Shown: positions 5,159 to 62,954, counted from the stretch's first letter. The stretch is 64,000 nucleotides of DNA from a virus (IMGVR_UViG_3300000439_000009:32001-96000); one strand, 5' to 3'. Translations and numbers: made by a program. Notes: a model not told the origin generated them from the letters alone.

Positions 5159-5905
5159 TTAAAGCTTACCGTTAATTCTTGGTGCGAATGCTCCGCCCCA
5201 AACAGATTTCTTCATCTCTTTTGCTTCATCTTCCTTAGATTCTGAAGCCTCTTCTTCTGCAGACTCTTCTTCGTCTGCTGCCTTAGCAATGCTATCAAAT
5301 CCTGCTGCTTCATGGTTTGGAGCAGTTTCTGCTGATACTACTGAAGCACCATCTACTGTCTTTTCCATTGGCATTGACTGACCACAATGTGGGCACTTCT
5401 CTGCTGCTGCTTTGGACATACCATCGCACATGCACATAGTCATAGCCTTGCCACAATCTGGGCAATTTGCTGCCTTCTCCATAGGTTCTGTTGTCTCGCC
5501 CTTAGAAGGAGCTTCCTCTGTTGTATTTGCAGTTGTACCTACATGAGTTGTAGGGATCTCTGCTGACTTTGTAATTGCAATTGCACTCTGAGCATCTGGC
5601 TCTGTTGTAGCAGATGCTGGATTAGCATAAGAATTCTCTGTTGTTGTTGATGCGTTAACATCTAGTGTCTTTTCTGTCATTTTTGTTTCACCGCCATTCG
5701 TAAATAAATTTGAGCTAAACATTGATGCAATATCTACATTTTCTGATACCACATGTTGCTTAACATAATGTTCTAAATGGTTATCGCTAACCTCTTGATG
5801 CTGACTGCTTGATGAGGAAAATGGAGAAACAACGCCAGGGTCTGGCTTCCACGACTTTAAAATTTCTGCAGTTAATTTTACTACTTTATCGTAGACGCTC
5901 TCCAT
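5159..5905 (-). CDS. Acidic modular protein with CxxC motifs and C-terminal VWGGAF; candidate capsid-internal protein
   Basis: CPDC and CPHC, repeated (I/M)-x-K-(S/A/T) sites, KSVWGGAFAP end. Confidence 0.7.
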   Translation of the reverse strand: MESVYDKVVKLTAEILKSWKPDPGVVSPFSSSSSQHQEVSDNHLEHYVKQHVVSENVDIASMFSSNLFTNGGETKMTEKTLDVNASTTTENSYANPASATTEPDAQSAIAITKSAEIPTTHVGTTANTTEEAPSKGETTEPMEKAANCPDCGKAMTMCMCDGMSKAAAEKCPHCGQSMPMEKTVDGASVVSAETAPNHEAAGFDSIAKAADEEESAEEEASESKEDEAKEMKKSVWGGAFAPRINGKL

Positions 5906-5919
5906 TATTCCCCCTTAAA

Positions 5920-6177
5920 TTAGTTAGCTGTTGGGCGTGTTGCGTTGTTTACGCTACCCTGCTCTGTTGATACGATTGGGCCACCGAATGCTGCACCTGT
6001 AGTCATTGACTCGTTTGCGCCTGTAAGTGGGCTCTGAACTGAAGCTCCTGCCATTGTCTTTGGCTCGTTAACTCCAAGATTTGTTACTGAAGCTGAAGCA
6101 CCGTGATCTGGAGCTGTTGCTGCTGTTACCTCTGGCTTGCCTGCTGCCTGAGATGGGGTCTGCTGATTGTTATCCAT
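5920..6177 (-). CDS. Low-complexity A/T/S/G-rich protein
   Basis: GGAGG RBS and its own TATAAT upstream. Confidence 0.65.
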   Translation of the reverse strand: MDNNQQTPSQAAGKPEVTAATAPDHGASASVTNLGVNEPKTMAGASVQSPLTGANESMTTGAAFGGPIVSTEQGSVNNATRPTAN

Positions 6178-6223
6178 ATTTCACCTCCATAGTGATTGTG
6201 TTTATATTATATCGTATAAGTGA

Positions 6224-6568
6224 TTAATTTGGGAATGGAAAATCTAAATCGTTATCTTCCATCCACCTTATACCTTTTTCTGTGGCTTTAAACCTTGCGT
6301 TTAGGTCTTCATCATAGTCAATTTCAACAAATCCCTCTTGATAAAGGACCATCAAATCGCTATCAATGTCTGCCATGATTTCTGTATAAAGCTCTGGCAT
6401 GACTACCTTTAGCTTTTCTAAATCGAACTTAAAGATGGCCTCTCCAAATTCGTCCATACCATCCCAAATTAAGGCTTTTTTCTCTTCAAGCCATCCAATA
6501 ATTTCATCATCGCTTTTATCAAACATAATATTATTGTACAGCCTTTGCAATATTAATAGCAAGCACAT
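6224..6568 (-). CDS. Hypothetical protein (start likely MFDKSDD ~6526)
   Basis: ORF, acidic. Confidence 0.65.
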   Translation of the reverse strand: MCLLLILQRLYNNIMFDKSDDEIIGWLEEKKALIWDGMDEFGEAIFKFDLEKLKVVMPELYTEIMADIDSDLMVLYQEGFVEIDYDEDLNARFKATEKGIRWMEDNDLDFPFPN

Positions 6569-7418
6569 TCTGTTTTACCATAATATTTGTATAATTTGTT
6601 CCAGTAGATTTAATTAGGGCATACTCGTTTGCATAAGATAGGTTTTTAGCATTAAGAATCTTAAGCCATCCCGTCCCAAAAGTTGCTACGGATAAGGATG
6701 TGCCGTAGTCTGATTTATACTGATTGCCTGGAACTGCTACAGTTAGACTTCCTGGAGAAGCAAAATCTACTCTAGAAGAATAGTTGGCATAGAGTGCAAG
6801 GCGACCTTTATCATCTATTGAACTAATTGCTAGCACTCCTGGCAGACATGCTGGATTATCAATGTTAGTATAGTTAAAGTCATTACCAGTTGGGAAGATT
6901 ACAGCAATTCCCAATGCCGTCAACTTGTTAATCGGAGTTGCATATCCTGCTGCAATATTGCAAGATGGTGACAATGAACCTAATGGTGAAACAACTGCGC
7001 CAATATTAAACTTATCTTTATTTAGATATACCCAGTTTAACGCTGTTGTCAACATATCAGGATTGCATCCGATATAGCCATTTGTTCCGATTAATGAAGC
7101 ACAACGAATTTCAATAATCTTTACGCTTGAATCAGTTTGTGTTGCAGCGGATGCAACCTCTGTTCCATGATTCCATGATGCATTTGTATACATTGCTGGA
7201 GTTACTGTTGCTGCTCCAGTTCCCTCCATAAAGTTTTGTTTATTAGGGCAACCATTATATCCAGATACACATACTTCATAAATAATATTATTTTTAATTG
7301 CTGGGTGCTGAATATCAACACCATTATCAATAATTACTAAAACCTTTGGTGTGGCAGCGTGGACTGGGACTGAAATGGCAGCAAACAATACAGCCAAAAT
7401 TGTAATTAACTTTTTCAT
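6531..7418 (-). CDS. Secreted subtilisin-like (S8) serine protease
   Basis: Signal peptide ending VHA; IIDNGVD, NHGTEVA, PTGND, YGTSLS catalytic motifs. Confidence 0.9.
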   Translation of the reverse strand: MKKLITILAVLFAAISVPVHAATPKVLVIIDNGVDIQHPAIKNNIIYEVCVSGYNGCPNKQNFMEGTGAATVTPAMYTNASWNHGTEVASAATQTDSSVKIIEIRCASLIGTNGYIGCNPDMLTTALNWVYLNKDKFNIGAVVSPLGSLSPSCNIAAGYATPINKLTALGIAVIFPTGNDFNYTNIDNPACLPGVLAISSIDDKGRLALYANYSSRVDFASPGSLTVAVPGNQYKSDYGTSLSVATFGTGWLKILNAKNLSYANEYALIKSTGTNYTNIMVKQNVLAINIAKAVQ

Positions 7419-7448
7419 TATATTCTTTTCTCTAGTAGTTATAGGTAT

Positions 7449-7477
7449 ATTATACAGTTAGAAAATAACCGTGTCAA
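7449..7477 (-). promoter_or_regulatory. Consensus sigma70/SigA promoter for the subtilase
   Basis: TTGACA-17 nt-TATAAT. Confidence 0.8.
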
Positions 7478-7479
7478 TG

Positions 7480-7923
7480 TTAAACGACTGTTTTTTTAAT
7501 TGTGCTGGAAAGCTGCCAGTTCCACTTTTGATGTGCTGACTCTCTGATCTCAAGATCACTAGCAATACCAATTTGTCCCACTGCTTCTGCAGCAGCATGG
7601 GCAACACGAATATCGTTAATCAAAACTTCATTAGACATTAAGAAGCTTTCGATTTGGTCCAATGCATTGTTTCCAAAATAAATTGATGATATGTTTCTAT
7701 TTTCCATAAATTGCTCTAACATATGCGGGGCGGGAGTGTTAAGTTTTCTTAACATTTCTGAAACATCGTCAATAGACTCATACACATCTTCGTAAATTTC
7801 TAAGAACTTAAGATGAATTTCTGGGAAAAGCATACCTTCAACATTCCAATGATACCCATGAATTTGAAAATAAGCAGTTACTATATCTGCTTGTAGTTTT
7901 TTTAATGCCTCTACTAAATCCAT
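7480..7923 (-). CDS. dps: Dps/ferritin-like DNA protection protein
   Basis: HGYHWNVEG..F..IH..F.E.YE, D.VSE, HQKWNWQL. Confidence 0.93.
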   Translation of the reverse strand: MDLVEALKKLQADIVTAYFQIHGYHWNVEGMLFPEIHLKFLEIYEDVYESIDDVSEMLRKLNTPAPHMLEQFMENRNISSIYFGNNALDQIESFLMSNEVLINDIRVAHAAAEAVGQIGIASDLEIRESAHQKWNWQLSSTIKKTVV

Positions 7924-8120
7924 TACTTTAATTTCTCCTTAATCCAAATCCACAAATGCTCGTGCCAGTAATAAAGTGCTGTTTCAAATAACATTTCGGC
8001 GGAAGCCAATTTTAATCCTACTGTCCAGTCACTAGTAATAATTGTACCAAGAATTGACACCATTGAAAAATGGAACAAATACCAGCTTAGGGTTTTAAGT
8101 AAGATTATCTTATTTTTCAC
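7923..8120 (-). CDS. DUF2061-like small membrane protein
   Basis: LKTLSW...LYYWHEHLW. Confidence 0.7.
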   Translation of the reverse strand: MKNKIILLKTLSWYLFHFSMVSILGTIITSDWTVGLKLASAEMLFETALYYWHEHLWIWIKEKLK

Positions 8121-8242
8121 TTTGTTTTTGCGTATCCAGTCTTCTTTTTGTTCATAGATCCTGGAAGCTTGCCTCCTGGACCCTTATGGTTTTTCTGTCT
8201 AATTTCTAATGCTTTTTTAATTTTCTCAGTATTGCTTGGCAT
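8117..8242 (-). CDS. Small basic protein (41 aa, not in ORF track)
   Basis: AGGAG RBS and TGATATAAT upstream; MPSNTEKIKKALEIRQKNHKGPGGKLPGSMNKKKTGYAKTK. Confidence 0.65.
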   Translation of the reverse strand: MPSNTEKIKKALEIRQKNHKGPGGKLPGSMNKKKTGYAKTK

Positions 8243-8260
8243 GATTCTCCTATTATATCA

Positions 8261-8488
8261 TTAATTGCTAGATTGAGAGGGCTTGTTGTTGATATATTCT
8301 CTCTCATCAATAATTTCATATGCTTGATTGTTTAACTTATCTTGATTCTTAACGTAATGATGTCCACAAAACATCAACTCCCCGCTAATTAATCTAACCA
8401 TTACAAAAGCTTGTGACCCACATGCATCACATCTATCAATTACTTTTAATACACGATCTGCTTTTTCTTGTGTCATAGTCATACTCAT
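8261..8488 (-). CDS. Small Zn-finger protein of actinobacterial type (DUF7455-like)
   Basis: DRCDACGSQA...LMFCGHH. Confidence 0.75.
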   Translation of the reverse strand: MSMTMTQEKADRVLKVIDRCDACGSQAFVMVRLISGELMFCGHHYVKNQDKLNNQAYEIIDEREYINNKPSQSSN

Positions 8489-8524
8489 AGTATATCCTTT
8501 TATGTTAGTAGTTACAAGTTTTAG

Positions 8525-8597
8525 TGTCCCCAGCAGGTTTCGATCCTGCGACCCGTTGCTTAAAAGGCAACTGCTCTACCAACTGAGCTATAGGGAC
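8525..8597 (-). tRNA. tRNA-Lys(UUU)
   Basis: Cloverleaf; anticodon arm GTTGC-CTTTTAA-GCAAC. Confidence 0.9.
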
Positions 8598-8598
8598 A

Positions 8599-8674
8599 TG
8601 GTACCCCAAGTTGGATTCGAACCAACGCTGTATGGATTTTAAGTCCACTATCTCTACCACTGGATTACTGGGGC
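8599..8674 (-). tRNA. tRNA-Leu(UAA), short variable arm
   Basis: GTGGA-CTTAAAA-TCCAT, TTCGAAT loop, encoded CCA. Confidence 0.88.
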
Positions 8675-8678
8675 TAAG

Positions 8679-8751
8679 CCCCCTCGGCACGATTCGAACG
8701 TGCGACGCAGGCCTTAGAAGAGCCTCGCTCTATCCTCTGAGCTACGAAGGG
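8679..8751 (-). tRNA. tRNA-Arg(UCU)
   Basis: AGGCT-CTTCTAA-GGCCT, TTCGAAT loop. Confidence 0.9.
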
Positions 8752-8758
8752 AAACCTA

Positions 8759-9283
8759 TTAAAGTGTTGCGCCACCAATTGGTCGTGCACACGCTGTCTT
8801 TTCACCAGTTTGCAATGCATCTAGAATACGCAATGTTTCTTCTGGATTACGTCCTGTGTCAAGATTATTAATTGTTACATGCTGAATAACATCATTATCA
8901 TCAACAATAAATGTCGCACGAAGTGCTACTCCGCCAGATGTTAAAATGTTTAACTGCTTTGCCAAGCCAAGTTCAAGATTCTGATCTGCAAACATAGTTG
9001 ATCTAATATTAGTTAATTGTGGGTCAGCTTGCTTCCATGCAATCTTAACATATTCATTATCAACTGATCCAATTAAAAGCTTTGCATTTCTTAAGCCAAA
9101 CTGTTCATGCAAAGAATCATAGCCAACAATTTCTGTTGGGCAAACAAATGTGAAGTCTTTTGGATAAAAAACAATAACTTTCCATTTGCGTCCAAATGTA
9201 TTGTTAGTTATTTCAAAAAAAGAATTATCTGCTCTGACTCCAGTAATCTTAAAGTCAGGCAACTTATTTCCTACTGTGTACAT
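8759..9283 (-). CDS. ahpC: AhpC-type 2-Cys peroxiredoxin
   Basis: FYPKDFTFVCPTE, LRATFIVD, GRNPEE.LR, resolving Cys; true start MYTVG because the longer ORF overlaps tRNA-Asp. Confidence 0.95.
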   Translation of the reverse strand: MYTVGNKLPDFKITGVRADNSFFEITNNTFGRKWKVIVFYPKDFTFVCPTEIVGYDSLHEQFGLRNAKLLIGSVDNEYVKIAWKQADPQLTNIRSTMFADQNLELGLAKQLNILTSGGVALRATFIVDDNDVIQHVTINNLDTGRNPEETLRILDALQTGEKTACARPIGGATL

Positions 9284-9315
9284 ACTACTCCTTATATAAG
9301 AAGGCTTGCGCCTTG

Positions 9316-9389
9316 CGATCTCAACGGGACTTGAACCCGCAACCTCCACCGTGACAGGGTGGCGATCTAACCAATTGATCTATGAGATC
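9316..9389 (-). tRNA. tRNA-Asp(GUC)
   Basis: CCACC-CTGTCAC-GGTGG, TTCAAGT loop. Confidence 0.9.
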
Positions 9390-9393
9390 CTAG

Positions 9394-9467
9394 TGGAACA
9401 GGTCAGACTTGAACTGACGATTACCGAATTATGAGTTCGGGGCTTTGACCAACTAAGCTACTGTTCC
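9394..9467 (-). tRNA. tRNA with CAU anticodon (elongator Met or Ile2)
   Basis: CCGAA-CTCATAA-TTCGG; G1-C72 is paired, so not initiator. Confidence 0.85.
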
Positions 9468-9468
9468 T

Positions 9469-9545
9469 TGGTAGAATGTTTGCGAATTGAACGCAACTCT
9501 AGGGAGGATATAAGCCACCATCTGACCACCAGCCAGCCACATTCC
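9469..9545 (-). tRNA. Atypical tRNA-Ile(UAU)
   Basis: Acceptor GGAATGT/ACATTCT, ACCA end, loop CTTATAT, T-arm TTGCG-TTCAATT-CGCAA; U-U mismatch in anticodon stem, G8. Confidence 0.65.
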
Positions 9546-9546
9546 G

Positions 9547-9619
9547 CTGGGGAAACAGGGCTCGAACCTGTGACCTAGGCATTAACAGTGCCCCGCTCTG
9601 CCGACTGAGCTATTCCCCA
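9547..9619 (-). tRNA. tRNA-Asn(GUU)
   Basis: GGGCA-CTGTTAA-TGCCT, TTCGAGC loop. Confidence 0.9.
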
Positions 9620-9623
9620 AAAA

Positions 9624-10211
9624 TTAAAATGGAACTTTTTCCATTATTGATTCGTCTATTTCACAAACAATGTTTATTACTACTGAAGATCTAAAATCAG
9701 ATTCTTTTGGATATTCCCAATTGTGAAAAATATCTCCATCAAAAAATAAAGCATACCCAGCTTTTGGTTCAAAAGATTTGAACAATGTTAAACTGTTTGG
9801 ATCAACTTCTTCTCCAGTATATCTTTTATCGTAAAGGTTTGTATTTCCTTCAGAATCATTAACATAATACACGAAAGTGTAATGTTTTTCAACTCTTCTT
9901 AAATCTACGTGAGGATCCATAGGTCTTTGTTCTTTAGATCTAAATGTAAGATTTCCTCTTTGCCTAAGTATTTTTTTAATTTTTACATTATTTTTTTCTG
10001 CAAATTTATTAATTAAAAAGGTAGCAAAATTTAAATCAAGAAAATCAACAACCATTATTCCATTATCAGAAAAATTATTGCTAGTTAAACCAACAACATT
10101 ATCTTTAGCTGCGCCTATTGATTCTATGAATCTATATTTTTGAGAAAATAAAAAATTTCTTGCATATATAACTTCTTCTTCTGTTAAAAAGTTATTTACA
10201 TAAAGATACAT
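9624..10211 (-). CDS. 2OG-Fe(II) oxygenase
   Basis: PHVD (HxD), YYVNDSEGNT, FFDGDIFH, R.S.VIN. Confidence 0.85.
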   Translation of the reverse strand: MYLYVNNFLTEEEVIYARNFLFSQKYRFIESIGAAKDNVVGLTSNNFSDNGIMVVDFLDLNFATFLINKFAEKNNVKIKKILRQRGNLTFRSKEQRPMDPHVDLRRVEKHYTFVYYVNDSEGNTNLYDKRYTGEEVDPNSLTLFKSFEPKAGYALFFDGDIFHNWEYPKESDFRSSVVINIVCEIDESIMEKVPF

Positions 10212-10230
10212 TTTGTTCCTTTAATTAAAG

Positions 10231-10348: not shown

Positions 10349-10355
10349 TATGTAT

Positions 10356-10385
10356 ATTATACTAGGTGGTTATTTATTATGTCAA
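10356..10385 (-). promoter_or_regulatory. Sigma70/SigA promoter for the structured RNA and tRNA cluster
   Basis: TTGACA-18 nt-TATAAT. Confidence 0.75.
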
Positions 10386-10856: not shown

Positions 10857-10888
10857 ATATACATTATATCAAACTGTTAGAGTTATTG

Positions 10889-11941
10889 TCAAATAGTTGT
10901 GTTATTAGAAGATCTGTTCCCGTACCCCACAGATGGCTTGCCATCATTTTCATATGTCGCTCTTGACGGGAAATAGTATCTTGCATCTTGATCCTGTGAA
11001 TTAAAATCAGGACCCATTTGACCTTTATTAGATGGAACAAATACACCAGACCAAATTGATTCGCCCTTTTCCATCTTATTTTCTCTTTCAACAATTGCAC
11101 GAGACCATGCAAATCCTGCATCTCCGCCCCATGCGTACCACATAACTTTACCATGTGAAGGCTTATCCCACTCTTTACCCTGCTTGTCAACTTCATGGCG
11201 TGAGAAGAATGAATACATACGCTTTACAGTATCAAGACTTAAAGACTCTCCATTAACAATTTGACGGGCTCTGCCCCAACCTACGGCTGTACCAGCTCCA
11301 GTTGCCTTGCCATCTTCTTTCCATTTAATTGCTTTGTGTGCTGCAGCCTTCATACCTGCATTTGGCTTATAGCCAGAATCTGATTTCTTTACTTCTTTAG
11401 GAATGCAATCTGGAACAGTTTTACCATTCTTTTCTTTTGTACCCGCATACTCATAACCATCCCAGCAAGGACCTTGACCCTTGGTCATGCAACTTAAACA
11501 TTTTTCTTCATCAGAAATATAATGATGATCATTTCCTAAATCATCACATCCGCATGTCATACATTTATTCACTACGTTATTCTCCTTATATTCCTCTGGA
11601 GTTTTAGTTGTCCTAACTTCATCGCTGAGTAGGTCTATTTTGGGGTTATCTAGGCCTTTGAGAGCCTCTTCTGCTTCTGCCCTAGTCAAGTAGCAGCCTA
11701 TTGATTGACCCGTTCCAGACTTCATTATAGCATATCCATGCTGACAATCTGGAGTATTAAATTCAATTGACCAGCCGTCTCCACCTGTAAATATCATTTT
11801 CTTTACATCTGGCACGTTTGTATATAAAGCACCTAATTGTGCCTGGGCCTGGGCTTTAGACGGATGTGTTCCAACAACCTTACCAGTAGCAGTAACTACT
11901 ACTTGATACTTGTTACCTTCACGTCTGATATTATATGGCAT
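10889..11941 (-). CDS. Multi-module protein, candidate head-internal polyprotein
   Basis: Two related N-terminal modules, CMTCGC, CWDGY..VPDC module, RMYSFFSRH..WGGDAG domain, IWSGVF motif; leaderless promoter. Confidence 0.75.
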   Translation of the reverse strand: MPYNIRREGNKYQVVVTATGKVVGTHPSKAQAQAQLGALYTNVPDVKKMIFTGGDGWSIEFNTPDCQHGYAIMKSGTGQSIGCYLTRAEAEEALKGLDNPKIDLLSDEVRTTKTPEEYKENNVVNKCMTCGCDDLGNDHHYISDEEKCLSCMTKGQGPCWDGYEYAGTKEKNGKTVPDCIPKEVKKSDSGYKPNAGMKAAAHKAIKWKEDGKATGAGTAVGWGRARQIVNGESLSLDTVKRMYSFFSRHEVDKQGKEWDKPSHGKVMWYAWGGDAGFAWSRAIVERENKMEKGESIWSGVFVPSNKGQMGPDFNSQDQDARYYFPSRATYENDGKPSVGYGNRSSNNTTI

Positions 11942-12573: not shown

Positions 12574-12577
12574 ATTT

Positions 12578-12760
12578 TTACTCCTTTCCCTTTGGATTTC
12601 TTAATCTAAATGTTGCAATCCACAAGAAGATAGAAATAAGAATTGCATCTCCAACAACTGTCTTTGCGGATCCCGTCAAAACTAGCCACGCAGAGAATAG
12701 ACCAACGAAAGTCCAAATCTGATTGGCTAGGTCTGACATTAAACCTTTAATTAGTTTCAT
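12578..12760 (-). CDS. Small 2-TM membrane protein
   Basis: Hydrophobic; ATGA-coupled to the upstream gene. Confidence 0.65.
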   Translation of the reverse strand: MKLIKGLMSDLANQIWTFVGLFSAWLVLTGSAKTVVGDAILISIFLWIATFRLRNPKGKE

Positions 12761-15537
12761 TTGCCGAACCTCCTTCTAAGTGCTGCTATTTGTCCTACGA
12801 CAAGTGTAGTCACTAAGATTTTTTTAGCTTTCTTTCTTGTTACAGGCGACATATCATTGCCAATATTAGCCATTGCAACAAATGCTTGATTGATTGCTTG
12901 CACTCCAGGAACTGAAGCAAGTGTACCAGTTATTGGGGTTAATACCACAGGGACAGCAACATCTGGAGCATTAAAACTATCTCCCCCTGGTTGACCGATA
13001 AATGTATCAGCAGTAGTGATTGCATCTGCAGGAATAGGTAAACCAGATCCTGGAGGTGGGGCAGGAGGTGTAAGATGACCATCTTCTCCAACAACTTGAG
13101 GTGCACTTTGTGTACCAAAGAATTGAATACCGCCATTTTCTACTCCTTTTACATCTACTTGAATATGTGGAACTAAAACTTCTGCTGGAGCAGGCTTTGG
13201 AATGTCAGTTGGCAGTTGTGCGGGATTGTTTGGAACGACGCCAGTTGATGCCACTAACGCTTTGTCTGCTGCTACTTTGTCTGCTGCTACTTTGTCTGCT
13301 GCTTGATGTGCAGCTTTATCTGCTTCTGCTTTAGCAGCATCAGCTTTTGCCTGTGCATCTTTTTGTGCTTGTATAGCAGCATCCTGTGCGGCTTTTGCAT
13401 CTTTTGCTTGTTGCTCTTTAGCTGCTTGTTCAGCAGCAATTCTATCCGCTTCTGCTTTTTGTTTATCTGCTTCTGCTTTAGCATTTGCAGATTCTTGTGC
13501 AGCTTTTGCTGCCTCATCTTTAGCTTTTTGTTCTGCTAGTGCAGCATCTTGTTCGGCTTTTGCTTTTGCGTCCGCCTCTGCTTTAGCAGCGTCTGCTGCT
13601 GCTTGAGCATCTTTTGCTGCTTGAATTTTTGCGTCTTCTGCTGCTTTGTCTGCTGCTGCTTGTGCTTCTTTGGCTGCTTGTTCAGCAGCAATACGTGCAT
13701 CTTCTGCAGCCTTGGCTTCCGCTGCTGCTTTTTCATTTGCTGCTTGCTGTGCAGTTGCTGCTGCATCTGCTGCAGCTTTATCTGCTGCTGCTTGTTCTGC
13801 CAATGCTTGTGCTCTTGCTGCCCTAGCTTCTGCATCTGCTTTTTGTTGTGCAGCTAATGCTGCGTCAGATGCTGCTTTATCGGCTGCTGCTTGTGCTATT
13901 GCAGCTTGACGATCTGTTTCTGCTTTAATTGCTGCTTGTCTTGCAGCCTCTGCCTCTGCAGCAAGTCTTGCTTGTTCTGCATAATAATCTTGTGTAACAG
14001 TAACTGCATTTCCAGTAGCAGTATTTGCATCTTGAACAGCAACAGTTGCAGTATCTGCAAGAGAGTTAGCAGTTTGCAATGTAGCATTTGCTGTATTTTG
14101 AGCATCTGTTAAATTTTGTTTTTGTATAGACAAATTTTCCTGTGCTGTTGTTAGATCTCTTTGTGCTAAATTATATGCTTGTTGTGCTGCATCTATAACA
14201 GATTGTTGGGCATTTACATCATTAACTGCATCGTGAAGTGCTTGTACTGCTTGTGCTACTACCTGTGCTTGTGCATCATATGCATTTTGAGCAGAAGTTA
14301 AATTAATTTGTGCTGTAGATACTGAAGCGGTCAATGTTGGATTTGGAGCAGAAGTAGTAGATATTACATGACTAAAATTAGTTGATGTAGGGGATGTAAA
14401 ATATTGATTATTAATCATATAACCTAAAGTTACTCCAGCACCTCCGCCATTTTCATAATACCAAAGAATAATATCTTGCGTTGTGCCAGCGGTAATATCA
14501 AATGATTGACTATAAGGACTCCAAGCTAATCCTTGATCTCTCCAGTTATTAATAACTAAATTACCATCAATATAAAGTTTTGATCCATCGTCTGAGTAAA
14601 CAGCATATTTAACAACTGTTGCATCTGACGGTAATGTAATCTTGCCTTCAAATTTTACAATTACATGATCTGATAATCCAGAATTAAGTATTTGACCACT
14701 TCCCCAATTATAAGTAATCTGAGGTACTGTCAGAACCTCTACTGGAGTAGCATTTGCAGCGGGGAGTGCAGGAGAGGCACCATTTGCTGCATGATAAACT
14801 GTTGCTATAAGTCCTGGTTGAGTAACATCAACAGTTGTTAATGGAGCAGAATTCAGTGCAGTTTGGGCATTTGTTAAATCAGTTTGGGCATTATTTAGGT
14901 CTGTTGATTTTTGATCAAAGGTAGAATTTTCAGCATTTGCTGTAGATTGTGCATTTGATGCAGTAGATTGTAAATCTGGCAACTTAGCAGTTTCGGTTGT
15001 TAGAATAGTTTGAGCATCAACCGCTTTAACTGTAGCGGTATCTACAGTAGTAACGGCTTGCGTTACTATTGCTGTTTGTGTATCCACTGTAGCAATTGCT
15101 GTTTGTGCAACCTGTGTTGCAGCTGTAGCAGAATCAATTGTTTGTTGAGCTATTTGAATTTTAGTATTTGCTTCAGCAACAGCAGATGCCATGGGTTCTT
15201 GTGTAGTAGCTATAGAAATTGCTGTTGAGGTATCTGTATTGGGAACGTTTGCTTGAATTGTTGAAATTATTGCATTCCCGTTTGCTTCTGAAGTTGTTTG
15301 AAGGCTTGAAATGGCTGCATTAATTTTATTTTCTATAACAGCAACTGTAACAGTTGATGTATCAATAACAGCATTTACTGTTGAAGTATCTGTTATAGCA
15401 ATTGGAATATCTGAGACGGGTTGGGAAGTATCTGTGGCAACGGGTGCATCATCGGCATGTGCTTTATTAGACGGGAAAAGAAATAGCAACCCTGTTATAA
15501 ACAAGGCTGCTATTATAAATTTAATCTTTCTGGTCAT
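12757..15537 (-). CDS. Large secreted/surface protein: PA14 domain in a long coiled-coil stalk with C-terminal anchor
   Basis: Signal peptide ending AHA; NWGSG..SDDGSKLYIDGNLVINNW.DQG..YYENGGGA (PA14); A/Q/K/E heptads; hydrophobic plus RRR C-terminus. Confidence 0.8.
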   Translation of the reverse strand: MTRKIKFIIAALFITGLLFLFPSNKAHADDAPVATDTSQPVSDIPIAITDTSTVNAVIDTSTVTVAVIENKINAAISSLQTTSEANGNAIISTIQANVPNTDTSTAISIATTQEPMASAVAEANTKIQIAQQTIDSATAATQVAQTAIATVDTQTAIVTQAVTTVDTATVKAVDAQTILTTETAKLPDLQSTASNAQSTANAENSTFDQKSTDLNNAQTDLTNAQTALNSAPLTTVDVTQPGLIATVYHAANGASPALPAANATPVEVLTVPQITYNWGSGQILNSGLSDHVIVKFEGKITLPSDATVVKYAVYSDDGSKLYIDGNLVINNWRDQGLAWSPYSQSFDITAGTTQDIILWYYENGGGAGVTLGYMINNQYFTSPTSTNFSHVISTTSAPNPTLTASVSTAQINLTSAQNAYDAQAQVVAQAVQALHDAVNDVNAQQSVIDAAQQAYNLAQRDLTTAQENLSIQKQNLTDAQNTANATLQTANSLADTATVAVQDANTATGNAVTVTQDYYAEQARLAAEAEAARQAAIKAETDRQAAIAQAAADKAASDAALAAQQKADAEARAARAQALAEQAAADKAAADAAATAQQAANEKAAAEAKAAEDARIAAEQAAKEAQAAADKAAEDAKIQAAKDAQAAADAAKAEADAKAKAEQDAALAEQKAKDEAAKAAQESANAKAEADKQKAEADRIAAEQAAKEQQAKDAKAAQDAAIQAQKDAQAKADAAKAEADKAAHQAADKVAADKVAADKALVASTGVVPNNPAQLPTDIPKPAPAEVLVPHIQVDVKGVENGGIQFFGTQSAPQVVGEDGHLTPPAPPPGSGLPIPADAITTADTFIGQPGGDSFNAPDVAVPVVLTPITGTLASVPGVQAINQAFVAMANIGNDMSPVTRKKAKKILVTTLVVGQIAALRRRFGK

Positions 15538-15600: not shown

Positions 15601-16149
15601 TTATGCTGAATACTTTGGACGACCAAAGCCAACAACAGTTGCCCATAGGTGTTTTCCATTATTTACTCTGTAACCACGAACATTAGAACATACTTCTCCA
15701 CCATTATCAGGGCTTCCTGAAGGCTTATGATCTGGAGATGTATTTCCTTCTACAGTTGTAATTGTACCGTCTCCATTATTGTGCAGAACAACACCTACAT
15801 GCTGTACTGGACTTGTTGGCAATGCATGTGGAATAAACGAGAAGAAGATTAAATCTCCTGGTTGCGGGGTGCCAGTATTGGGATCAATAATTTCTCCTGC
15901 TGTTTTGAAAGCAGCATACCCTGCTGGTGTATAAACAACATTTGGGATTGTTACGCCCGACTGGTGGGCGCACCAGTTCATGAAACTTCCGCACCATGCC
16001 TGTCCGTCATGTCCTGTAAACTTGCCATAATCTGTTTCGTTATCTTTTGGTCCTTCAACAACGCCAACTTGCGACATTGCTACTTCTAAAAATCTTGCAG
16101 CAGATCCTTGTGGATGTACTGTTACTGGTGGAACTGGTCTTGATGCCAT
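15601..16149 (-). CDS. CHAP-domain endolysin
   Basis: AWCGSF, PGDLIFF, HVGVV, TVEGNT, GFGRP. Confidence 0.88.
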   Translation of the reverse strand: MASRPVPPVTVHPQGSAARFLEVAMSQVGVVEGPKDNETDYGKFTGHDGQAWCGSFMNWCAHQSGVTIPNVVYTPAGYAAFKTAGEIIDPNTGTPQPGDLIFFSFIPHALPTSPVQHVGVVLHNNGDGTITTVEGNTSPDHKPSGSPDNGGEVCSNVRGYRVNNGKHLWATVVGFGRPKYSA

Positions 16150-17880: not shown

Positions 17881-19722
17881 CTACAATATTGTAAAATTGT
17901 CTACAAAACCAGTTTCTGGATTTGGTTCTTCATCTTCTATACCAAGATAATCTTTTAGGCTTGCTGGCATATATCTGATATTTGGAGCTTTGATAGTGTT
18001 ATCTTGCTTTACATCTGATGGGCTCCCGACCACTTCTTCATCAAATGCATCATAGGAGTAAACTTGGATTTCTCCATCTCCCTTTGGTGTTAATGATATC
18101 GCATTAAAAATTGCACCGCAAGTAGCATCTGCAAGGTCTTTAGAACCTTTGCGTGGGTGATCAACCTTATCCCTTTTAACAATTCTTAATTCAAGTAATT
18201 CATCAATAATTAAAGGTAATCTAGGACCAGTTAATCTTTCTTCCATTACGCATAAAAGCATATCTTCATAGTGTTTTTTAGCCACAGAAAGGACTTCACA
18301 GTTCATTCCGTATGATTTTAACTGCTCCATCATGTCAAAAGAATTCCATCGGTCAAATGTAACTCTACGAATATTAAATCCTCTTTGTTTTAAACTAATT
18401 ATATAGTTCTTAACATCTGTAAAGTCAACAGACTTTTCTTTAGTAGGAGTCCAATATCTGATTGCATCAACAACTACAAATGGTTGTGCATCTGTATATG
18501 CGCCAGATAGTTTCATAGTAACCCACTTATCTACATGTGCCATTGATACTGCACAATGGTCATGCTTTTGTGCTAAGTCAACGTGTATATAATATGACTT
18601 TTCTGGATCTGGCACAAACCATTCTTTAAATGCATTATTTTCATCAAGGGCTATGTTTAAATTGCTAAATGCAGTTTCAACTTTTTCACGGGAATGGAAA
18701 AGTGCATCAATAGCTTCAGGAGGCATACATGCAAAACGAGATAGGGCATCTATAGGATCTGAATAGAAGTTCATAGCTAAATCTTCAATTTTAATTGTTG
18801 GGTTAATCTCCCATGTGGGACGCTTTAATGCAAATACTCTAGGCACATTATAGTTAAGGATATGATCTTCTTCCCATTCAATTGAGAATTCATTACCTTC
18901 AGTCCCCTCTGGTAAATCTTCATCTACTTTAAAAGTATGTGTACGAACTATAACTTCTTTATCTGCAACTACTTCATTATATCTTTGTTGAATATAATCA
19001 TTTTTAAAACGTGGGAATGAAAGAAGAATTACCTTTCCAAATTGTGGAAAACGAGAGTCTACAGATCCTCTAAACATCTTATAGATTGCAGAAGCAGTTT
19101 TAGATTGTTCATTACCGCTTGTTGAATCTAAATCAAAACCTGAAATTTCGTCAAGCACTGCAAATAAAAGGTTGTAACCCTCCCAAGATTCTCTTTGAGA
19201 GTGACCAGAGTGAACGGTAATTGCTTTGTCAAAAGCAATACTTCCCATCTTTGCTTCATATTTGCCATCAAACCAACGGCATCGTGTTATTCTGTTTTTA
19301 AAACCTTTAAAAAAAACCTGTTGTGCCTGTATAGCGTTTACCGCAACGTTAATAATATCAATGGAGTCTCCTGGAGGTTTGCCATAATATCTGGCTGGAT
19401 CTTTAAGACAAAGCAATAAATAAACTACATACGAACACGCAATAGTTGAAGTATAGTCTTTTCCAGAACCTTTTCCCAGCTGGAAGATAACTTCATTACA
19501 AGTTTGCCCCCATCTTTTTGCTCCATCTTCTTCTCCGTATAACTTAATTAATGTTTCTTTTTTATAAATTTGAGTTGATGCTTTGATCATTTGATATTGA
19601 TATTGTGAAAGTGGTGGCAAAGCAAGATAGTCTTTTGAAGTTACAAACTCCTCAATTTCTACTGGGGTTTCTTCAAAAGCATCTTCTTCAAGAGCACCTA
19701 AAAATTCACTAAAATCAGTCAA
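17881..19722 (-). CDS. terL: Terminase large subunit
   Basis: GKGSGKD Walker A, AVLDE Walker B, HVDLA and TFDRWNS nuclease motifs, KDLADA. Confidence 0.92.
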   Translation of the reverse strand: MTDFSEFLGALEEDAFEETPVEIEEFVTSKDYLALPPLSQYQYQMIKASTQIYKKETLIKLYGEEDGAKRWGQTCNEVIFQLGKGSGKDYTSTIACSYVVYLLLCLKDPARYYGKPPGDSIDIINVAVNAIQAQQVFFKGFKNRITRCRWFDGKYEAKMGSIAFDKAITVHSGHSQRESWEGYNLLFAVLDEISGFDLDSTSGNEQSKTASAIYKMFRGSVDSRFPQFGKVILLSFPRFKNDYIQQRYNEVVADKEVIVRTHTFKVDEDLPEGTEGNEFSIEWEEDHILNYNVPRVFALKRPTWEINPTIKIEDLAMNFYSDPIDALSRFACMPPEAIDALFHSREKVETAFSNLNIALDENNAFKEWFVPDPEKSYYIHVDLAQKHDHCAVSMAHVDKWVTMKLSGAYTDAQPFVVVDAIRYWTPTKEKSVDFTDVKNYIISLKQRGFNIRRVTFDRWNSFDMMEQLKSYGMNCEVLSVAKKHYEDMLLCVMEERLTGPRLPLIIDELLELRIVKRDKVDHPRKGSKDLADATCGAIFNAISLTPKGDGEIQVYSYDAFDEEVVGSPSDVKQDNTIKAPNIRYMPASLKDYLGIEDEEPNPETGFVDNFTIL

Positions 19723-57041: not shown

Positions 57042-57130
57042 TTTTTTATTTCACCACCTTATTTTTTTTAAAGTTTGGCTTAAATCTTCCTCTTGGTCTA
57101 ATAATAACATATTAGACTTATAATACGAAT

Positions 57131-58368: not shown

Positions 58369-58786
58369 GTACCCTTTGCAATGTTATTTCGTAATGTGAA
58401 ACTTTGCCAAATGGATCTAAAACTGCATGTGAACCTACAACATCAAATGTTGTATCTGGATTATCGTATCTATCAATTTCTGTATATACCGATTGACCAT
58501 CATTAGATTTTATACCAGATATTCTTGAACGCTTTGAAATAGGTTTTAAGCACTTCATTTTTAATTCTATACTTTCTATATATTCATTATTTTTACCAAC
58601 ATCAAATTTTTTTCCATCCCCACGCACAGATGCGCCAGAAGATTTAATTGGTGATATCTTGCAACGAATAGTTTCTTCATAAACCCATTCTCTAGTTATA
58701 ACACCGCTAGTTTCAGATTGTTTATTTTGCTGAACTAATATATCAGCTGTCATATTCATTATGCTGCCAACTAATGATACAGACAT
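58337..58786 (-). CDS. Head closure/stopper protein
   Basis: Position; beta-rich. Confidence 0.6.
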   Translation of the reverse strand: MSVSLVGSIMNMTADILVQQNKQSETSGVITREWVYEETIRCKISPIKSSGASVRGDGKKFDVGKNNEYIESIELKMKCLKPISKRSRISGIKSNDGQSVYTEIDRYDNPDTTFDVVGSHAVLDPFGKVSHYEITLQRVRVQNDNTQSK

Positions 58787-59736
58787 TATATAATCACTAT
58801 CCCAGTATTTCTATATTGATCTAGGATCTGGTCCACAATAACATTTCCAGTTCCAGTAAATGCACCAGAATCAAGTTGGAAATTAATGTCGCCTAGTTGA
58901 ACTTTATTAAGGTATTTTTGTCTCCACTCAGAGTCTCTAGAAAGATAATCTCCTGCTAATAAGACTGTACATCTTCTAACATCTTGTGGGACATAAGGCC
59001 AACCTTTTTCGCCATAAACTCTATATCTATATCCAGCCTTAAAACTTCCAGAATATTCTGAAGTTACATTAAATGAGCTATCATAAGCAATTATATTTTG
59101 ATAATCTTTATTAATAATACGAATAGCACGATATGTTGGAGTTAACTCTATATCAAATCCAAATTTATTTACTATTGGATCCGTAGTATAATCTATCGTT
59201 AAAGTGCCATTTTCGTATAGTTGACCTATTTCAAGCATTCTCTCTACAAGCTCTAAAGCATCTGATCCATTACCAAATATTTCTTGATCTCCCCACCCAC
59301 GACCAAATGTTTGGCCTGCGTAAGTTTCTATCTGCATACGTGCAATAAACTCTGCTGCTTGAATCTCTTCTTCTGATTTATAGTTAAGATCAGATGGGCG
59401 GGTGCCAAAACCATAATATTCTATTATATCTGCCAATGAAGCATACGGAGTATACACCTCATAAAAATCTTCTTGATAGGTTGCTTGTCCATGGGTTGTA
59501 TAGCTCCATGTAACCTTTATAACACGATTTAGGGAAGTTACAATACCGTTAAGGTCTATTGTATACTTCCCTATTTCTGGATCGTTATATGCCAACGTAG
59601 ATGGCAATAGTACTCTATCTGGGTAGTCTGCATCAACTATAACAACATGGACATCGCCATCTGCATTACATAGCTCTTTTTTGTAGTATATCTCAAGTTC
59701 TGCTGTTGCTGTGGTACCACGTATTATCTGATGCAT
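58786..59736 (-). CDS. Head-tail adaptor
   Basis: YASL, IETYAGQTF, GWPYVPQDVR, TGNVIVDQIL..YR. Confidence 0.7.
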   Translation of the reverse strand: MHQIIRGTTATAELEIYYKKELCNADGDVHVVIVDADYPDRVLLPSTLAYNDPEIGKYTIDLNGIVTSLNRVIKVTWSYTTHGQATYQEDFYEVYTPYASLADIIEYYGFGTRPSDLNYKSEEEIQAAEFIARMQIETYAGQTFGRGWGDQEIFGNGSDALELVERMLEIGQLYENGTLTIDYTTDPIVNKFGFDIELTPTYRAIRIINKDYQNIIAYDSSFNVTSEYSGSFKAGYRYRVYGEKGWPYVPQDVRRCTVLLAGDYLSRDSEWRQKYLNKVQLGDINFQLDSGAFTGTGNVIVDQILDQYRNTGIVII

Positions 59737-59749
59737 TTAAGCCCCCTAT

Positions 59750-60151
59750 TTAATTATAAAACTCCTGAGCTTCTCTAGGAGTTGCTGGTCTAAAGCCTGG
59801 CTCATGGTCAAAAATCTTTGTAGCGTCGTCTTCTGTCATGGCTACAAATGGATGTTCCTGAGTAAAGGTATATCCGTAAACAGTATAAGATGGATTAGCC
59901 TTATCCATTCTTACTAAAATAGTCTTAGCTTTATCAAGCTTAACTTTCTTTTCTTTTACTGGTTGTTCAATTTCTACTTTTTCTGTACCATTAAACTTTG
60001 CATACATATCGTATGAAATTCCATTATCTTCAAGTTCTAAAAGAATTGATTGCTTTGTAGCTTTTTCTGGCAATTCTACGCCAAAGGTTTCTGCTACCTT
60101 TTTTAATTCTGTAATTTTTAATGTATCAAATGACATATCTTTTCCTCTCAT
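59750..60151 (-). CDS. Protein with N-terminal Rho-N/HeH-like motif
   Basis: LKITELKKVAETFGV...TKQSIL; follows the capsid gene. Confidence 0.6.
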   Translation of the reverse strand: MRGKDMSFDTLKITELKKVAETFGVELPEKATKQSILLELEDNGISYDMYAKFNGTEKVEIEQPVKEKKVKLDKAKTILVRMDKANPSYTVYGYTFTQEHPFVAMTEDDATKIFDHEPGFRPATPREAQEFYN

Positions 60152-60185
60152 GTCGTATCTATTATACCATCTATTATATAAAGTA

Positions 60186-60220
60186 TAAGGGGGAGGATTT
60201 TAAGTCCTCCCCGCTTATTT
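60186..60220 (-). terminator. Terminator after the major capsid gene
   Basis: GGGGAGGA..TCCTCCCC hairpin. Confidence 0.7.
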
Positions 60221-60239
60221 GCACCTTTAATAGGTTAGA

Positions 60240-61394
60240 TTAGAATGTACCACGTGTATGTGTATCTGCATTAGATACTAGTGAACCGTGTGTTACTGAT
60301 CCAAGTGAACCGAACTGGGTTCCTGAGACCTTAACATTCTTGACGATAACATGTGCATCGTAGTTCTCGAAAGCGCAGCCAACACGAATGAATAGTGTAT
60401 ATTCAATTGTGTCTTTCTTTGGCTGGAAGAGACGGTAAACAACAACGTCACGCTTGATACCAACGATAAAGTTCTGTGGGAATGTCAAGTGGACATCACC
60501 AAAGAGACCTGAAGTTGCATCGTAGCCTGAGTCGCCATATGCCTTACCAGTTGAATCACGAGTTTCATCCATAAGAGGAACGTTGATTACTGGGATACCG
60601 AAAGCAAACGGTGTAGTGGTACCAGGACCACCATCGTTAGCAACTACGTCACCACGGATTACGCCAGAAGCGATATCCCATGGATTCACAGAACCAGCGT
60701 TAGCTGTAAGATTATATAGATAATCCTGAACTAAGTTTGATCCTACGAAGAAACGAAGCTGATTGCGACGCTGCTTGTACTTACGTGGCAAGGTCTTAAT
60801 TGCTGTATTAAAAACAGCTTTGTCAAGTCCCTGTGCGTTACCATCAACAACGTGTGCGTTTGCTAGAGCGTTAGCTCTGAATCCGACAAATGCTGACATA
60901 AGTCCGCTGCCTGATCCAGTACCGTTGATAAGAGTATCTTCGATGTCGTTACCTGCCTGTGTTGCCATCAAGCGGGCGATATGATCTTCGAGATCTGGTC
61001 CCTCAAGATTGTCTTCAAGAGCCTCTGCTGAGAGCTCCCAATCAAGACGAAGCTTGCGAGTTGTTAGAGAAATCTTAGAAAATGTTGCACCTGCTGTAGT
61101 GAACTGATCTCCTGCTGCGTTAACGTAGTCACGAGGGTTCTCTTCTGCTGCAACTGTCATCAGTCTCTGTCCTACAGAAACACGATCAATCTCAGTTGTG
61201 TTTGAACGCATGCGAATTGTACGGGCCGCCTTAGCGAGAATCGTAGCATCCCACATGTAATCTAGGAATCTGTTAGCCTGATCTGGGTATAGAAGACCTG
61301 TACCTGAATGGGTACGTCCGTCACCTGATAGATCAGAACCTGAAGTTCCAAGGTTTGTTGTGTCAATTACTTTTTGTAAAAGTTCATTGCTCAT
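60240..61394 (-). CDS. Major capsid protein (HK97 fold)
   Basis: GLLYPDQANRF, KLRLDWELSAEALEDN, GNDIED..INGTG. Confidence 0.92.
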   Translation of the reverse strand: MSNELLQKVIDTTNLGTSGSDLSGDGRTHSGTGLLYPDQANRFLDYMWDATILAKAARTIRMRSNTTEIDRVSVGQRLMTVAAEENPRDYVNAAGDQFTTAGATFSKISLTTRKLRLDWELSAEALEDNLEGPDLEDHIARLMATQAGNDIEDTLINGTGSGSGLMSAFVGFRANALANAHVVDGNAQGLDKAVFNTAIKTLPRKYKQRRNQLRFFVGSNLVQDYLYNLTANAGSVNPWDIASGVIRGDVVANDGGPGTTTPFAFGIPVINVPLMDETRDSTGKAYGDSGYDATSGLFGDVHLTFPQNFIVGIKRDVVVYRLFQPKKDTIEYTLFIRVGCAFENYDAHVIVKNVKVSGTQFGSLGSVTHGSLVSNADTHTRGTF

Positions 61395-61427
61395 TTTTTA
61401 TTTCACCACCTTTGTATTTGTTGATTT

Positions 61428-62954
61428 TTATAGATTTGCGGAACCGAGGAAGGATCCTTGCCAATCGAACTCCATATTTTTCTGGAGTCTAGTACCCCTT
61501 GGCGAGTTTTCTACTTCACCAATGGACTTTTGTACTGCAGTATCACTCTCGTAAGCACCAAAACGCTTTTCTAGCTCTTCAAATCTTTTGAAGAAATCAG
61601 AGATATTGTTAGTTAGATCTGTAAGATCTTTTTTCATGCCTTCTACGGCACTCATGTATTCGGCACGTGCTGCCTCTACTGTATCTACTGACTTTTGGAT
61701 TTTTGCTTCTGTGTCTGCAGAATTCTGTTCTACTGCTTCGCTGAAGAGGTTGCGCATTTCTGTCAACATCTTTGCAAAAGGCTCTGTTGCCTCTGCGCTT
61801 GTGACCGACTTCTCTACGGCTTCTTCTGCTGGAGCTTCTGCTGGTGCATCTGCTGCTACTGGAGTTTCATCTGTAGCTGGTGCATCTGCTGGTGCATCTG
61901 CTGCTGGAGCATCTGCTGGAGTTTCGACATCAGCTGCTGAATTTACAATTGCATCAATTGCTGATTCTGCTGCTTCTACAATCTGTTCGATTGCATCCGC
62001 TACTGCGTCATTATTTGTTTCGTCTGCCATTTTATTACCTCCTTCATTAGCATACTCTGAATCATTTACTGAATCAGACTTCTTTAGTGTTGTTTTTTTC
62101 TTGAGTTTTCTTCTCAGTCTTTGCTTTGCTTTATTTTGATCTGGATAAAGATTAATTGTTTCTTTTGAGTTAACTGTTCCAGCATCTCCATCTTGAGTGG
62201 TAGCTGAATGATCTGGACCTGGAGCATCATCTTTCTTAAAATAAGAATCAACAACTTTGCTAATTGCTAATCCCTTTTCAGTTTCTGAAGATTCTATCCA
62301 ACCAACATTATCCATTCCTGTACCGCAGATAACGCAATCTTTTGAAGATGCAATTGTTGAGGATGCAATCTGATCTTTTTTGCACCAATAAACATTTTCA
62401 ATTTTAGTATCTGCTGCCATACCTTTCATAAATGAAGAACCATCAACATTTTTTTGAATAGAAAAAATGCTTGCAAGTGGATTTGCTGGTGAGTCAACTA
62501 ATGAAAGTTCCATAAGATCATATTCTTTAATAACACGATGATCATTTTTATCTCCTGGCATTACTCCAGCATCTACAATATTCCCGCCAATTGAAAAACC
62601 AGTCATAGTTCCATCAAGAACTTTTTCCCAAGTGTCCTGTGCTCCCTTAGAAACATAAGCCTGCACATAAATACCTTTATAAGTTTTTCCAGATTCTTTA
62701 TCAAGATAATCTTCTGGATGAAATGATAAAACTTTACCTACAGCAATTGGGGCATGCATTTCACGGAGGTTTCCTCTAAAACGTGCAAATGCTTTTTCTG
62801 ATGCTTCTGCTGTTACAATGTCGCCATGACGGTCAATATTATCTAATGTTGCAAACCCAGAGACAGTCCTTTTTTCCTTATCTACCTTGGTGATAGGGAA
62901 GGACATATTGACTGTAGATTGGCTATTATTCCATTGTACTTTTTGAATGTTCAT
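61428..62954 (-). CDS. Prohead protease-scaffold fusion
   Basis: REMH, GFSIGG, ELSLVDSPANP; acidic P/A-rich and coiled-coil C-half. Confidence 0.9.
   Translation of the reverse strand: MNIQKVQWNNSQSTVNMSFPITKVDKEKRTVSGFATLDNIDRHGDIVTAEASEKAFARFRGNLREMHAPIAVGKVLSFHPEDYLDKESGKTYKGIYVQAYVSKGAQDTWEKVLDGTMTGFSIGGNIVDAGVMPGDKNDHRVIKEYDLMELSLVDSPANPLASIFSIQKNVDGSSFMKGMAADTKIENVYWCKKDQIASSTIASSKDCVICGTGMDNVGWIESSETEKGLAISKVVDSYFKKDDAPGPDHSATTQDGDAGTVNSKETINLYPDQNKAKQRLRRKLKKKTTLKKSDSVNDSEYANEGGNKMADETNNDAVADAIEQIVEAAESAIDAIVNSAADVETPADAPAADAPADAPATDETPVAADAPAEAPAEEAVEKSVTSAEATEPFAKMLTEMRNLFSEAVEQNSADTEAKIQKSVDTVEAARAEYMSAVEGMKKDLTDLTNNISDFFKRFEELEKRFGAYESDTAVQKSIGEVENSPRGTRLQKNMEFDWQGSFLGSANL

Follow-up and report, generated by a model that had tools for sequence, protein, structure and literature searches.

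The window analyzed here comprises 64,000 nucleotides (bases 32001-96000) of the IMG/VR virus record IMGVR_UViG_3300000439_000009, which totals 106,853 bases and is 99% complete. It encodes a protease-scaffold protein (61428-62954) whose C-terminal tail shares a short motif, W-x-G-x-F preceded by a hydrophobic-x-Lys (h-x-K) site, with two accessory proteins specified by the open reading frames (ORF) at 5159-5905 and 10889-11941. At the level of this motif, the peptide common to the scaffold tail and the accessory proteins constitutes a conserved and portable unit, as revealed by the reshuffling of modules in related genomes. We propose that it acts as a scaffold-like, protease-releasable tag for loading modular cargo into the capsid, where the cargo would be processed by the prohead protease, and we place the probability of this reading at about one half. 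An earlier note on this DNA, generated from the sequence alone, had put forward the capsid-loading interpretation, which is partly supported by the results presented here.

A peptide shared by the protease-scaffold and two accessory proteins

All real genes of the window lie on the minus strand. The protein encoded at 61428-62954 (508 residues), between the portal and major capsid protein (MCP) genes, had been described in the earlier note as a scaffold. A scaffold part is indeed present, but it is fused to a prohead protease of the S78/XkdF type (Pfam, PHROG 9427), and the protein is a protease-scaffold fusion rather than a plain scaffold because the S78/XkdF match covers the first ~180 residues and acidic scaffold follows. 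The serine protease domain (residues 1-180; 62415-62954) matches Pfam Peptidase_S78_2 (6e-8) and Peptidase_S78 (9e-6), with scores of 33.1 bits (cut-off 24) and 26.3 bits (cut-off 21) for the S78-type profiles, as well as PHROG 9427, head maturation protease (1e-115), and its motifs H-G-D and G-F-S-I-G-G are invariant among relatives. The acidic scaffold (residues 181-492; 61479-62414) contains 86 Asp and Glu residues and 17 h-x-K sites, ends in L-Q-K and keeps its V-E-K-S, I-Q-K-S and V-Q-K-S sites in relatives. It is followed by a 16-residue tail (61431-61478) containing W-Q-G-S-F-L-G, with the stretch from W to F at 61449-61463. The gene order portal, fusion, MCP, with an acidic and coiled C-terminal half in the fusion, is found in this genome, and the same order is annotated in phages LukeCage, Trina and BillNye.

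The core of the scaffold tail is unchanged in 17 close relatives (64-100% identity). Two further IMG/VR clades, reached through homologues of the accessory proteins and not through the scaffold, contributed 17 additional genomes of ~100 kb with a recovered scaffold C-terminus, and all 17 end in hydrophobic-x-Lys, Ser, one residue and W-x-G-x-F-L. The Streptomyces phages LukeCage and BillNye present the same scaffold ending, and Rhodococcus phage Trina has F instead of W. In an alignment of 25 protease-scaffolds, including those of Streptomyces BE-cluster phages, the tail surpasses every other 10-residue window beyond residue 200 in conservation and equals the protease domain, with the W, G, F, L and preceding Lys positions at 0.9 or more.

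The same type of site marks the start of the capsid protein. The MCP gene (60240-61394; Pfam Phage_capsid) begins M-S-N-E-L-L-Q-K-V, with a predicted 8-residue propeptide ending in L-Q-K (61371-61394). This N-terminus is invariant in 14 relatives, and every clade, like LukeCage, BillNye and Trina, has an h-x-K site at MCP residues 7-11. The S78 protease is predicted to cleave after Lys at such conserved hydrophobic-x-Lys sites; in HK97, the cut falls after Lys103. A literature search on S78 cleavage specificity and on T5 pb11 returned nothing usable.

The first accessory protein, ORF 5159-5905 (248 residues), is acidic and disordered-looking and has two small Cys cassettes bounded by M-x-K|A sites. 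It closes with an M-K-K site (5207-5215) and a 15-residue C-terminal tag beginning S-V-W-G-G-A-F-A-P (5162-5206), so that site and tag together span 5162-5215; the W-G-G-A-F core (5186-5200) lies 8 residues from the protein end. The second, ORF 10889-11941 (350 residues), is made up of modules A (residues 1-48), B (49-126), C (127-186, Cys-rich) and D (187-292), followed by the tag and a tail. Its M-E-K site (11066-11074) and tag, G-E-S-I-W-S-G-V-F-V-P (11033-11065), occupy 11033-11074, with W-S-G-V-F at 11039-11053. The earlier note had located this tag near the end of the protein; W-S-G-V-F is present, but it is internal, 49 residues from the end, and precedes a 47-residue tail (10892-11032) with a motif, D-G-K-x-x-x-G-Y-G-N-[RH]-S, that is conserved across subgroups and a low predicted local distance difference test (pLDDT) score. 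The quoted peptides and their positions were all correct, and every h-x-K site that had been listed exists.

A count over all 164 ORFs of the genome gives four occurrences of W-x-G-x-F, where 1.1 are expected. Three copies belong to the protease-scaffold and the two accessory proteins, each preceded by hydrophobic-x-Lys, and the fourth to the CHAP endolysin (15601-16149), where it is the catalytic site and was accordingly discarded as a tag. The comparison with shuffled controls that had been suggested as a check bears out the enrichment of the tag: when a Lys is demanded at most 6 residues upstream and the motif must fall in the last 60 residues, three copies are observed against 0.14 expected, a number reached in none of 2000 shuffles (P<1/2000). 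The claim that h-x-K sites are repeated in all three proteins holds best for ORF 5159-5905, with seven h-x-K[SAGT] sites against 1.1 expected (z 5.5, the proteome maximum), and for the scaffold, with 17 h-x-K sites against 8.5 (z 3.4), but ORF 10889-11941 displays only a modest excess (4 against 1.5). The h-x-E pattern is not enriched (2 against 4.6 expected in ORF 5159-5905).

Several other candidates were considered and set aside. The W-x-G-x-F of an enzyme reading I-H-W-D-G-D-F-F was rejected as a tag, and the h-x-K enrichment in a short-chain dehydrogenase/reductase (SDR) and an oxygenase upstream of the portal was judged to be noise. Homologues of ORF 4059-4379 in genomes G003 and G011 contain G-V-W-G-G-V-F; R stands in place of W in this genome, from which we conclude that the sequence belongs to a fold, and these small ORFs were not retained as tagged because their W is not conserved. 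A 151-residue ORF outside the window (G000:C1:106008-106463; 74008-74463 on the window scale) contains W-D-G-x-x-F-x-L-P twice, one copy at its very end, and probably represents a repeat domain rather than a tagged protein, since neither copy has h-x-K before it.

Conservation and portability of the tag

Conservation in homologues, on which the interpretation of the earlier note hinged, extends to all relatives of both accessory ORFs. The tag of ORF 5159-5905 is kept in six of six homologues, including a distant one in G003, and that of ORF 10889-11941 in all 19 homologous loci, also where module D has been deleted. The order of the modules in relatives of ORF 10889-11941 varies between A-B-C-D-tag and A-B-D-tag-C-tag, deletion of module D leaves the tag directly after module C, and several relatives have a second copy of the tag; throughout these reorderings, deletions and duplications, h-x-K is found at every junction. 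The Cys cassette of ORF 5159-5905 is likewise doubled in two relatives, exactly between M-x-K|A sites. Altogether, the tag follows at least five unrelated modules, including module D, the Cys module C, a DUF5872 module, a module of the "MPDGSFPI" type and an acidic tract.

An AlphaFold2 (AF2) model of ORF 10889-11941 is congruent with this modular layout. Modules A and D are predicted with pLDDT of about 95, residues 46-55, 99-146 and 301 onward are disordered, and the predicted sites V-K-K|M, V-N-K|C and M-E-K|G lie in or at the edge of disordered stretches. The proposal that the sites of the accessory proteins coincide with module boundaries is thus sustained in that each junction has an h-x-K site and the linkers are disordered, but M-T-K-G falls inside the Cys module. 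Pfam searches with the separate modules of ORF 10889-11941 identified no family for any of them, and a search for cargo function (PDB by sequence, Foldseek and VIA-align on the AF2 model, ESM Atlas) gave nothing usable.

Module D, an all-helical domain (PHROG 2859; 11066-11383) with no fold match in PDB, provides a view of the tag beyond close relatives. Used alone as a query against 1.84 billion representatives, it retrieved 3788 clusters at E<1e-3. Among the best 149 representatives, 18 contain W-x-G-x-F against 3.3 expected (the maximum of 200 shuffles being 9), almost always just after Lys and C-terminal, and ~16 more end in a variant longer by one residue. Another clade has the ending Lys-Lys-Ser-Ile-Trp-x-Gly-x-Phe-Leu/Ile-Lys in 85 of 153 loci. 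The tails of its cargo (K-S-I-W-G-G-A-F-L-K) and of its scaffold (K-K-S-K-W-N-G-S-F-L-G) agree past F and through the following Leu, a closer match between cargo and scaffold than that seen in the window.

These results bear on the possibility that scaffold and accessory tails resemble each other by coincidence or convergence, and that the latter is a C-terminal extension specific to its family, without a role in targeting. Only 5-7 residues make up the shared core, W-x-G-x-F arises by chance in the CHAP active site and in an enzyme of ~250 residues, and the G-V-W-G-G-V-F of the small ORFs is part of a fold whose W has been lost in this genome. Coincidence sits poorly, however, with three Lys-preceded C-terminal copies where 0.14 are expected, with a tag found after five or more different modules and with a match that extends through F-L-K in another clade, and we consider it improbable.

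In several phages, the same cargo modules are found as covalent parts of head proteins. Module D forms part of the "prohead protease" of Halogranum virus HGTV-1 and is N-terminal in the protease-scaffold-capsid fusion of Synechococcus phage S-CBS1, in the XkdF-type protease of Limnohabitans phage DC31 and in a protein of Vibrio phage 1.122.A encoded between MuF-like and capsid genes. Pfam analysis of 95 longer module-D proteins identified Phage_Mu_F (8), Peptidase_S78 (6), portal (3), capsid (2), ADP-ribosyltransferase (4) and Zeta toxin (1) domains. The Cys cassette offers a parallel case. In the relative L013 (IMGVR_UViG_3300006120_000027, a 54-kb contig), the protease-scaffold at L013:2995-4452 carries a C-P-D-C-G-K cassette bounded by h-x-K|A sites, and this insert, the sole match to ORF 5159-5905 in that contig, shares 51% identity across 57 residues (E 3e-14) with the cassette of ORF 5159-5905 and its flanking sites. 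Judging by sequence, the L013 insert is a cis version of cargo that is encoded in trans in the window; ORF 5159-5905 itself had no tblastn match in cultured phages. The simplest common reading of the cargo modules is that they are fused in cis in some phages and provided in trans with a scaffold-like tag in others. Module-D polypeptides also contain Ferritin-like (2), DUF5872 (11), Hva1_TUDOR (10), NUDIX, HAD and PI3/PI4-kinase-like domains, and the presence of Ferritin-like cargo beside module D recalls encapsulins.

Proposed loading and release, and competing explanations

The mechanism we propose starts with the scaffold-terminal peptide (hydrophobic-x-Lys, 0-5 residues, W-x-G-x-F-L), which, by analogy with other scaffolds and head proteases, would anchor the protease-scaffold to the inner face of the assembling shell. 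The two unlinked modular proteins, bearing a like peptide (Lys site, S/G, hydrophobic residue, W-x-G-x-F), would be recruited into the procapsid as cargo. At hydrophobic-x-Lys sites, cleavage after the Lys by the S78 prohead protease would then take about 8 residues off the capsid protein, dismantle the scaffold, sever each tag from its passenger and split the passengers at their linkers into small modules. The first accessory protein would be expected to yield acidic peptides and two Cys knuckles of ~20 residues, and the second modules A-D; the released modules would stay in the head and may exit with the DNA. Binding of the tag to coat, cleavage, packaging and ejection are all steps that we infer, and the borrowing of the scaffold peptide by the accessory genes and the delivery of effectors with the DNA, as envisaged in the earlier note, are to be read in the same manner.

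The partner of the peptide could be some other component of the head, such as a protease exosite, the scaffold core or the portal, in which case packaging and processing would still occur. The targeting sequence of T4 binds the scaffolding core and not the shell, and is cut off by the head protease (PMC7411985). Fusions of module D to MuF or portal domains are frequent, and the Lys site always adjoins the tag, an arrangement that would also suit a substrate-recruiting motif. The fact that the tail forms the C-terminal end of the scaffold nevertheless favors coat binding, by analogy with 80alpha, P22 and phi29 (PMC5644958), and docking on another partner appears unlikely to us.

The proposed system combines features of several known ones. 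T4 uses a short address peptide to send unrelated proteins (IPI-III and Alt) to the prohead, where gp21 removes it at a hydrophobic-x-charged site that is also used on scaffold and capsid, and small acidic internal peptides result, as we propose here (PMC7411985). The T4 tag, however, is an N-terminal leader of 10-20 residues that binds the scaffolding core, whereas the tags in this genome are C-terminal or internal and resemble the scaffold's own tail; the T4 cut falls after Glu and is made by a gp21-type protease, whereas the sites described here end in Lys, the protease belongs to S78 and there is no sequence relationship. Accordingly, neither an N-terminal leader nor its removal at hydrophobic-x-Glu by a gp21-type protease was found in this system. 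In mechanistic terms, the nearest precedent for a protein that copies the coat-binding peptide of a scaffold is SaPI1 CpmB: it reproduces the 16 C-terminal residues through which the 80alpha scaffold binds the coat N-arm, and is thereby brought to the same site within the procapsid (PMC5644958). The present case shares with it, at motif level (Lys site, S/G, hydrophobic residue, W-x-G-x-F), the occurrence of the scaffold's C-terminal peptide on a second protein. CpmB is a satellite's competing scaffold that alters capsid size and uses the motif R-I-I-K, whereas here the peptide is W-x-G-x-F, is carried by the phage's own modular passengers and has a protease site before it. The helix-and-hook R-I-I-K element of 80alpha is absent, the sequence being different and the tag region disordered in the AF2 monomer model.

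In work by Duda, Oh and Hendrix (J Mol Biol, 2013), the C-terminal region of HK97 gp4 is said to take the S78-family protease into the procapsid and to be able to carry passengers. The HK97 protease has no separate scaffold domain, unlike the fusion described here. The gp4 tail is not known to be reused by any natural accessory protein. Encapsulins, in which a short C-terminal peptide loads diverse cargo into a shell of HK97 fold, offer an analogy only. The virus analyzed here is a true tailed phage, with a portal, a large terminase, an endolysin and a candidate tape measure (a 2315-residue ORF), its cargo genes lie ~50 kb from the shell gene, the peptide consensus is another one and, according to our prediction, the tag is cut off. 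The polyvalent proteins of Iyer, Burroughs, Anand, de Souza and Aravind (2017) likewise string together small modules that are unrelated to one another; they are predicted to be packaged in the head and are often fused to MuF or portal domains (PMC5512222). ORF 10889-11941 fits this description, with several unrelated small modules in one polypeptide and relatives fused to MuF, portal and other head proteins, and module D shares proteins with MuF, ADP-ribosyltransferase (ART) and Zeta-toxin domains, an architecture of the kind described in that study (PMC5512222). Covalent head fusion and built-in peptidases are invoked there, and the passages found describe neither a scaffold-like C-terminal tag nor S78 processing at Lys sites (PMC5512222). 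A search of the literature found no paper describing a W-x-G-x-F tag.

A number of observations weigh against the capsid-loading reading. In this genome, the likeness between the scaffold tail and the two tags is confined to ~5-7 residues, namely the Lys site, one hydrophobic position and W-x-G-x-F, and the residues after F differ, with A/V-P in the cargo and L-G in the scaffold. A profile built from scaffold tails alone assigns the two tags 10.1 and 7.6 bits, against a median shuffled-proteome maximum of 10.3; with the same profile, they rank first and fourth among non-scaffold matches. The tag of ORF 10889-11941 is internal and precedes a conserved tail, as noted above, and ORF 5159-5905 belongs to an operon with a sigma-70-type promoter and a secreted subtilase, which does not obviously suggest late regulation. 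In six relatives with unchanged W-G-G-x-F-L scaffolds, module-D proteins end in W-x-G-S-A-F or A-L-F-A-D-F-G-K, and those of other relatives end in S-L-F-G-T-E-G-P. Co-variation of cargo and scaffold tails across 27 genomes is not clean, and the association of W-tail scaffolds with W tags is not phylogenetically independent, because it essentially sets one large lineage against a few others. Finally, no tagged accessory protein was detected in LukeCage, the sole cultured relative that was scanned.

Some of these points could be accommodated by assuming that W-x-G-x-F is a short linear motif unrelated to the capsid, engaged in binding a host hub protein, in self-association or in turnover, that the h-x-K sites reflect flexible Lys-rich linkers and that the accessory proteins are ordinary intracellular phage proteins. 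Such an explanation would be in keeping with the location of both genes among small accessory genes beside strong sigma-70-type promoters, with cargo-tail variants that change while the scaffold tail remains constant and with the non-significant profile scores of the tags. It leaves aside that in other phages these modules are incorporated covalently in head proteins, that the W-x-G-x-F tail is the most conserved part of the scaffold and that the MCP N-terminus has the same h-x-K site in all clades; we rate it as improbable as docking on another head partner.

A broader version of the capsid-loading reading can be advanced only tentatively. It would posit, for a large lineage of ~100-kb phages related to Stanwilliamsviridae and with probably actinobacterial hosts, a general plug-in system in which any module gaining a Lys site and W-x-G-x-F is loaded in trans and released by S78, with cis fusion and trans tagging being interchangeable. 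The question has wider relevance, as the choice of head cargo in tailed phages is understood mainly for T4, P1 and jumbo phages. If the reading is correct, a portable tag that brings its own release site would account for the packaging of small, rapidly changing modules without MuF or portal fusion, and virion cargo could be predicted by a sequence rule in thousands of uncultured phages (3788 representative clusters for module D alone). The system would also constitute a natural viral counterpart of encapsulin loading and a ready-made tag of ~12 residues for siphophage (HK97-fold) capsids. The presence of the same scaffold tail in cultured Streptomyces phages makes the idea directly testable.

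Genomic context of the accessory genes

ORF 5159-5905 is the last gene of a four-gene operon that is headed by a subtilase (6531-7418; Pfam Peptidase_S8, 6e-13) with an N-terminal signal peptide, preceded by a promoter at 7449-7477 and closed by a strong terminator at 5113-5140. The promoter is one of only three perfect TTGACA-N16-18-TATAAT sequences in the window (7449-7477, 10356-10385 and 10863-10892, all on the minus strand; 0.13 expected). They fall within 3.5 kb and precede the subtilase operon, an oxygenase/EndoV-like gene and an Hsp20 gene, and the units they lead look like moron-style cassettes.

This arrangement raises the possibility that ORF 5159-5905 is a multi-core precursor peptide whose Cys cassettes are freed by the subtilase of the same operon, with no link to the capsid. 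The two genes delimit an operon that ends in a terminator, the subtilase adjoins the homologue of ORF 5159-5905 in G001 and G002, and repeated M-x-K|A sites flank the cassettes. Yet the subtilase has a signal peptide and ORF 5159-5905 has none, and the subtilase is missing from G003, G004 and G010, and for these reasons the precursor reading is unlikely. G003 still has tagged proteins with h-x-K junctions, the scaffolds of all three genomes are studded with h-x-K sites, and the cassette is also present inside the scaffold of L013. In view of its signal peptide, the subtilase is an unlikely processor of these cytoplasmic proteins, and with its patchy distribution as a further reason it was rejected as the processing enzyme; we deem the precursor explanation by far the least probable of those considered.

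The earlier note had emphasized that both accessory genes are distant from the head module. They do lie ~50 kb away, but late genes are found close to both of them, namely those of the large terminase (17881-19722) and the CHAP endolysin, ~43 kb from the portal (63008-64588), which opens the head block ahead of the protease-scaffold fusion. With the large terminase and endolysin nearby, distance from the head block is of little help in judging the timing of accessory-gene expression. The large terminase gene is separated from the head genes by the tail and replication modules.

No DNA matches to the window were found among cultured phages. At the protein level, the closest cultured relatives of the protease are those of Streptomyces BE-cluster phages (Stanwilliamsviridae, 52-57% identity) and Rhodococcus phage Trina, followed by T5-like Vibrio phages, with a protease identity of about 27-30%. 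Between the endolysin and the accessory genes, the window also encodes a 926-residue protein (12757-15537, minus strand) with a PA14 domain and no PHROG match, which may be an adhesin or receptor-binding protein.

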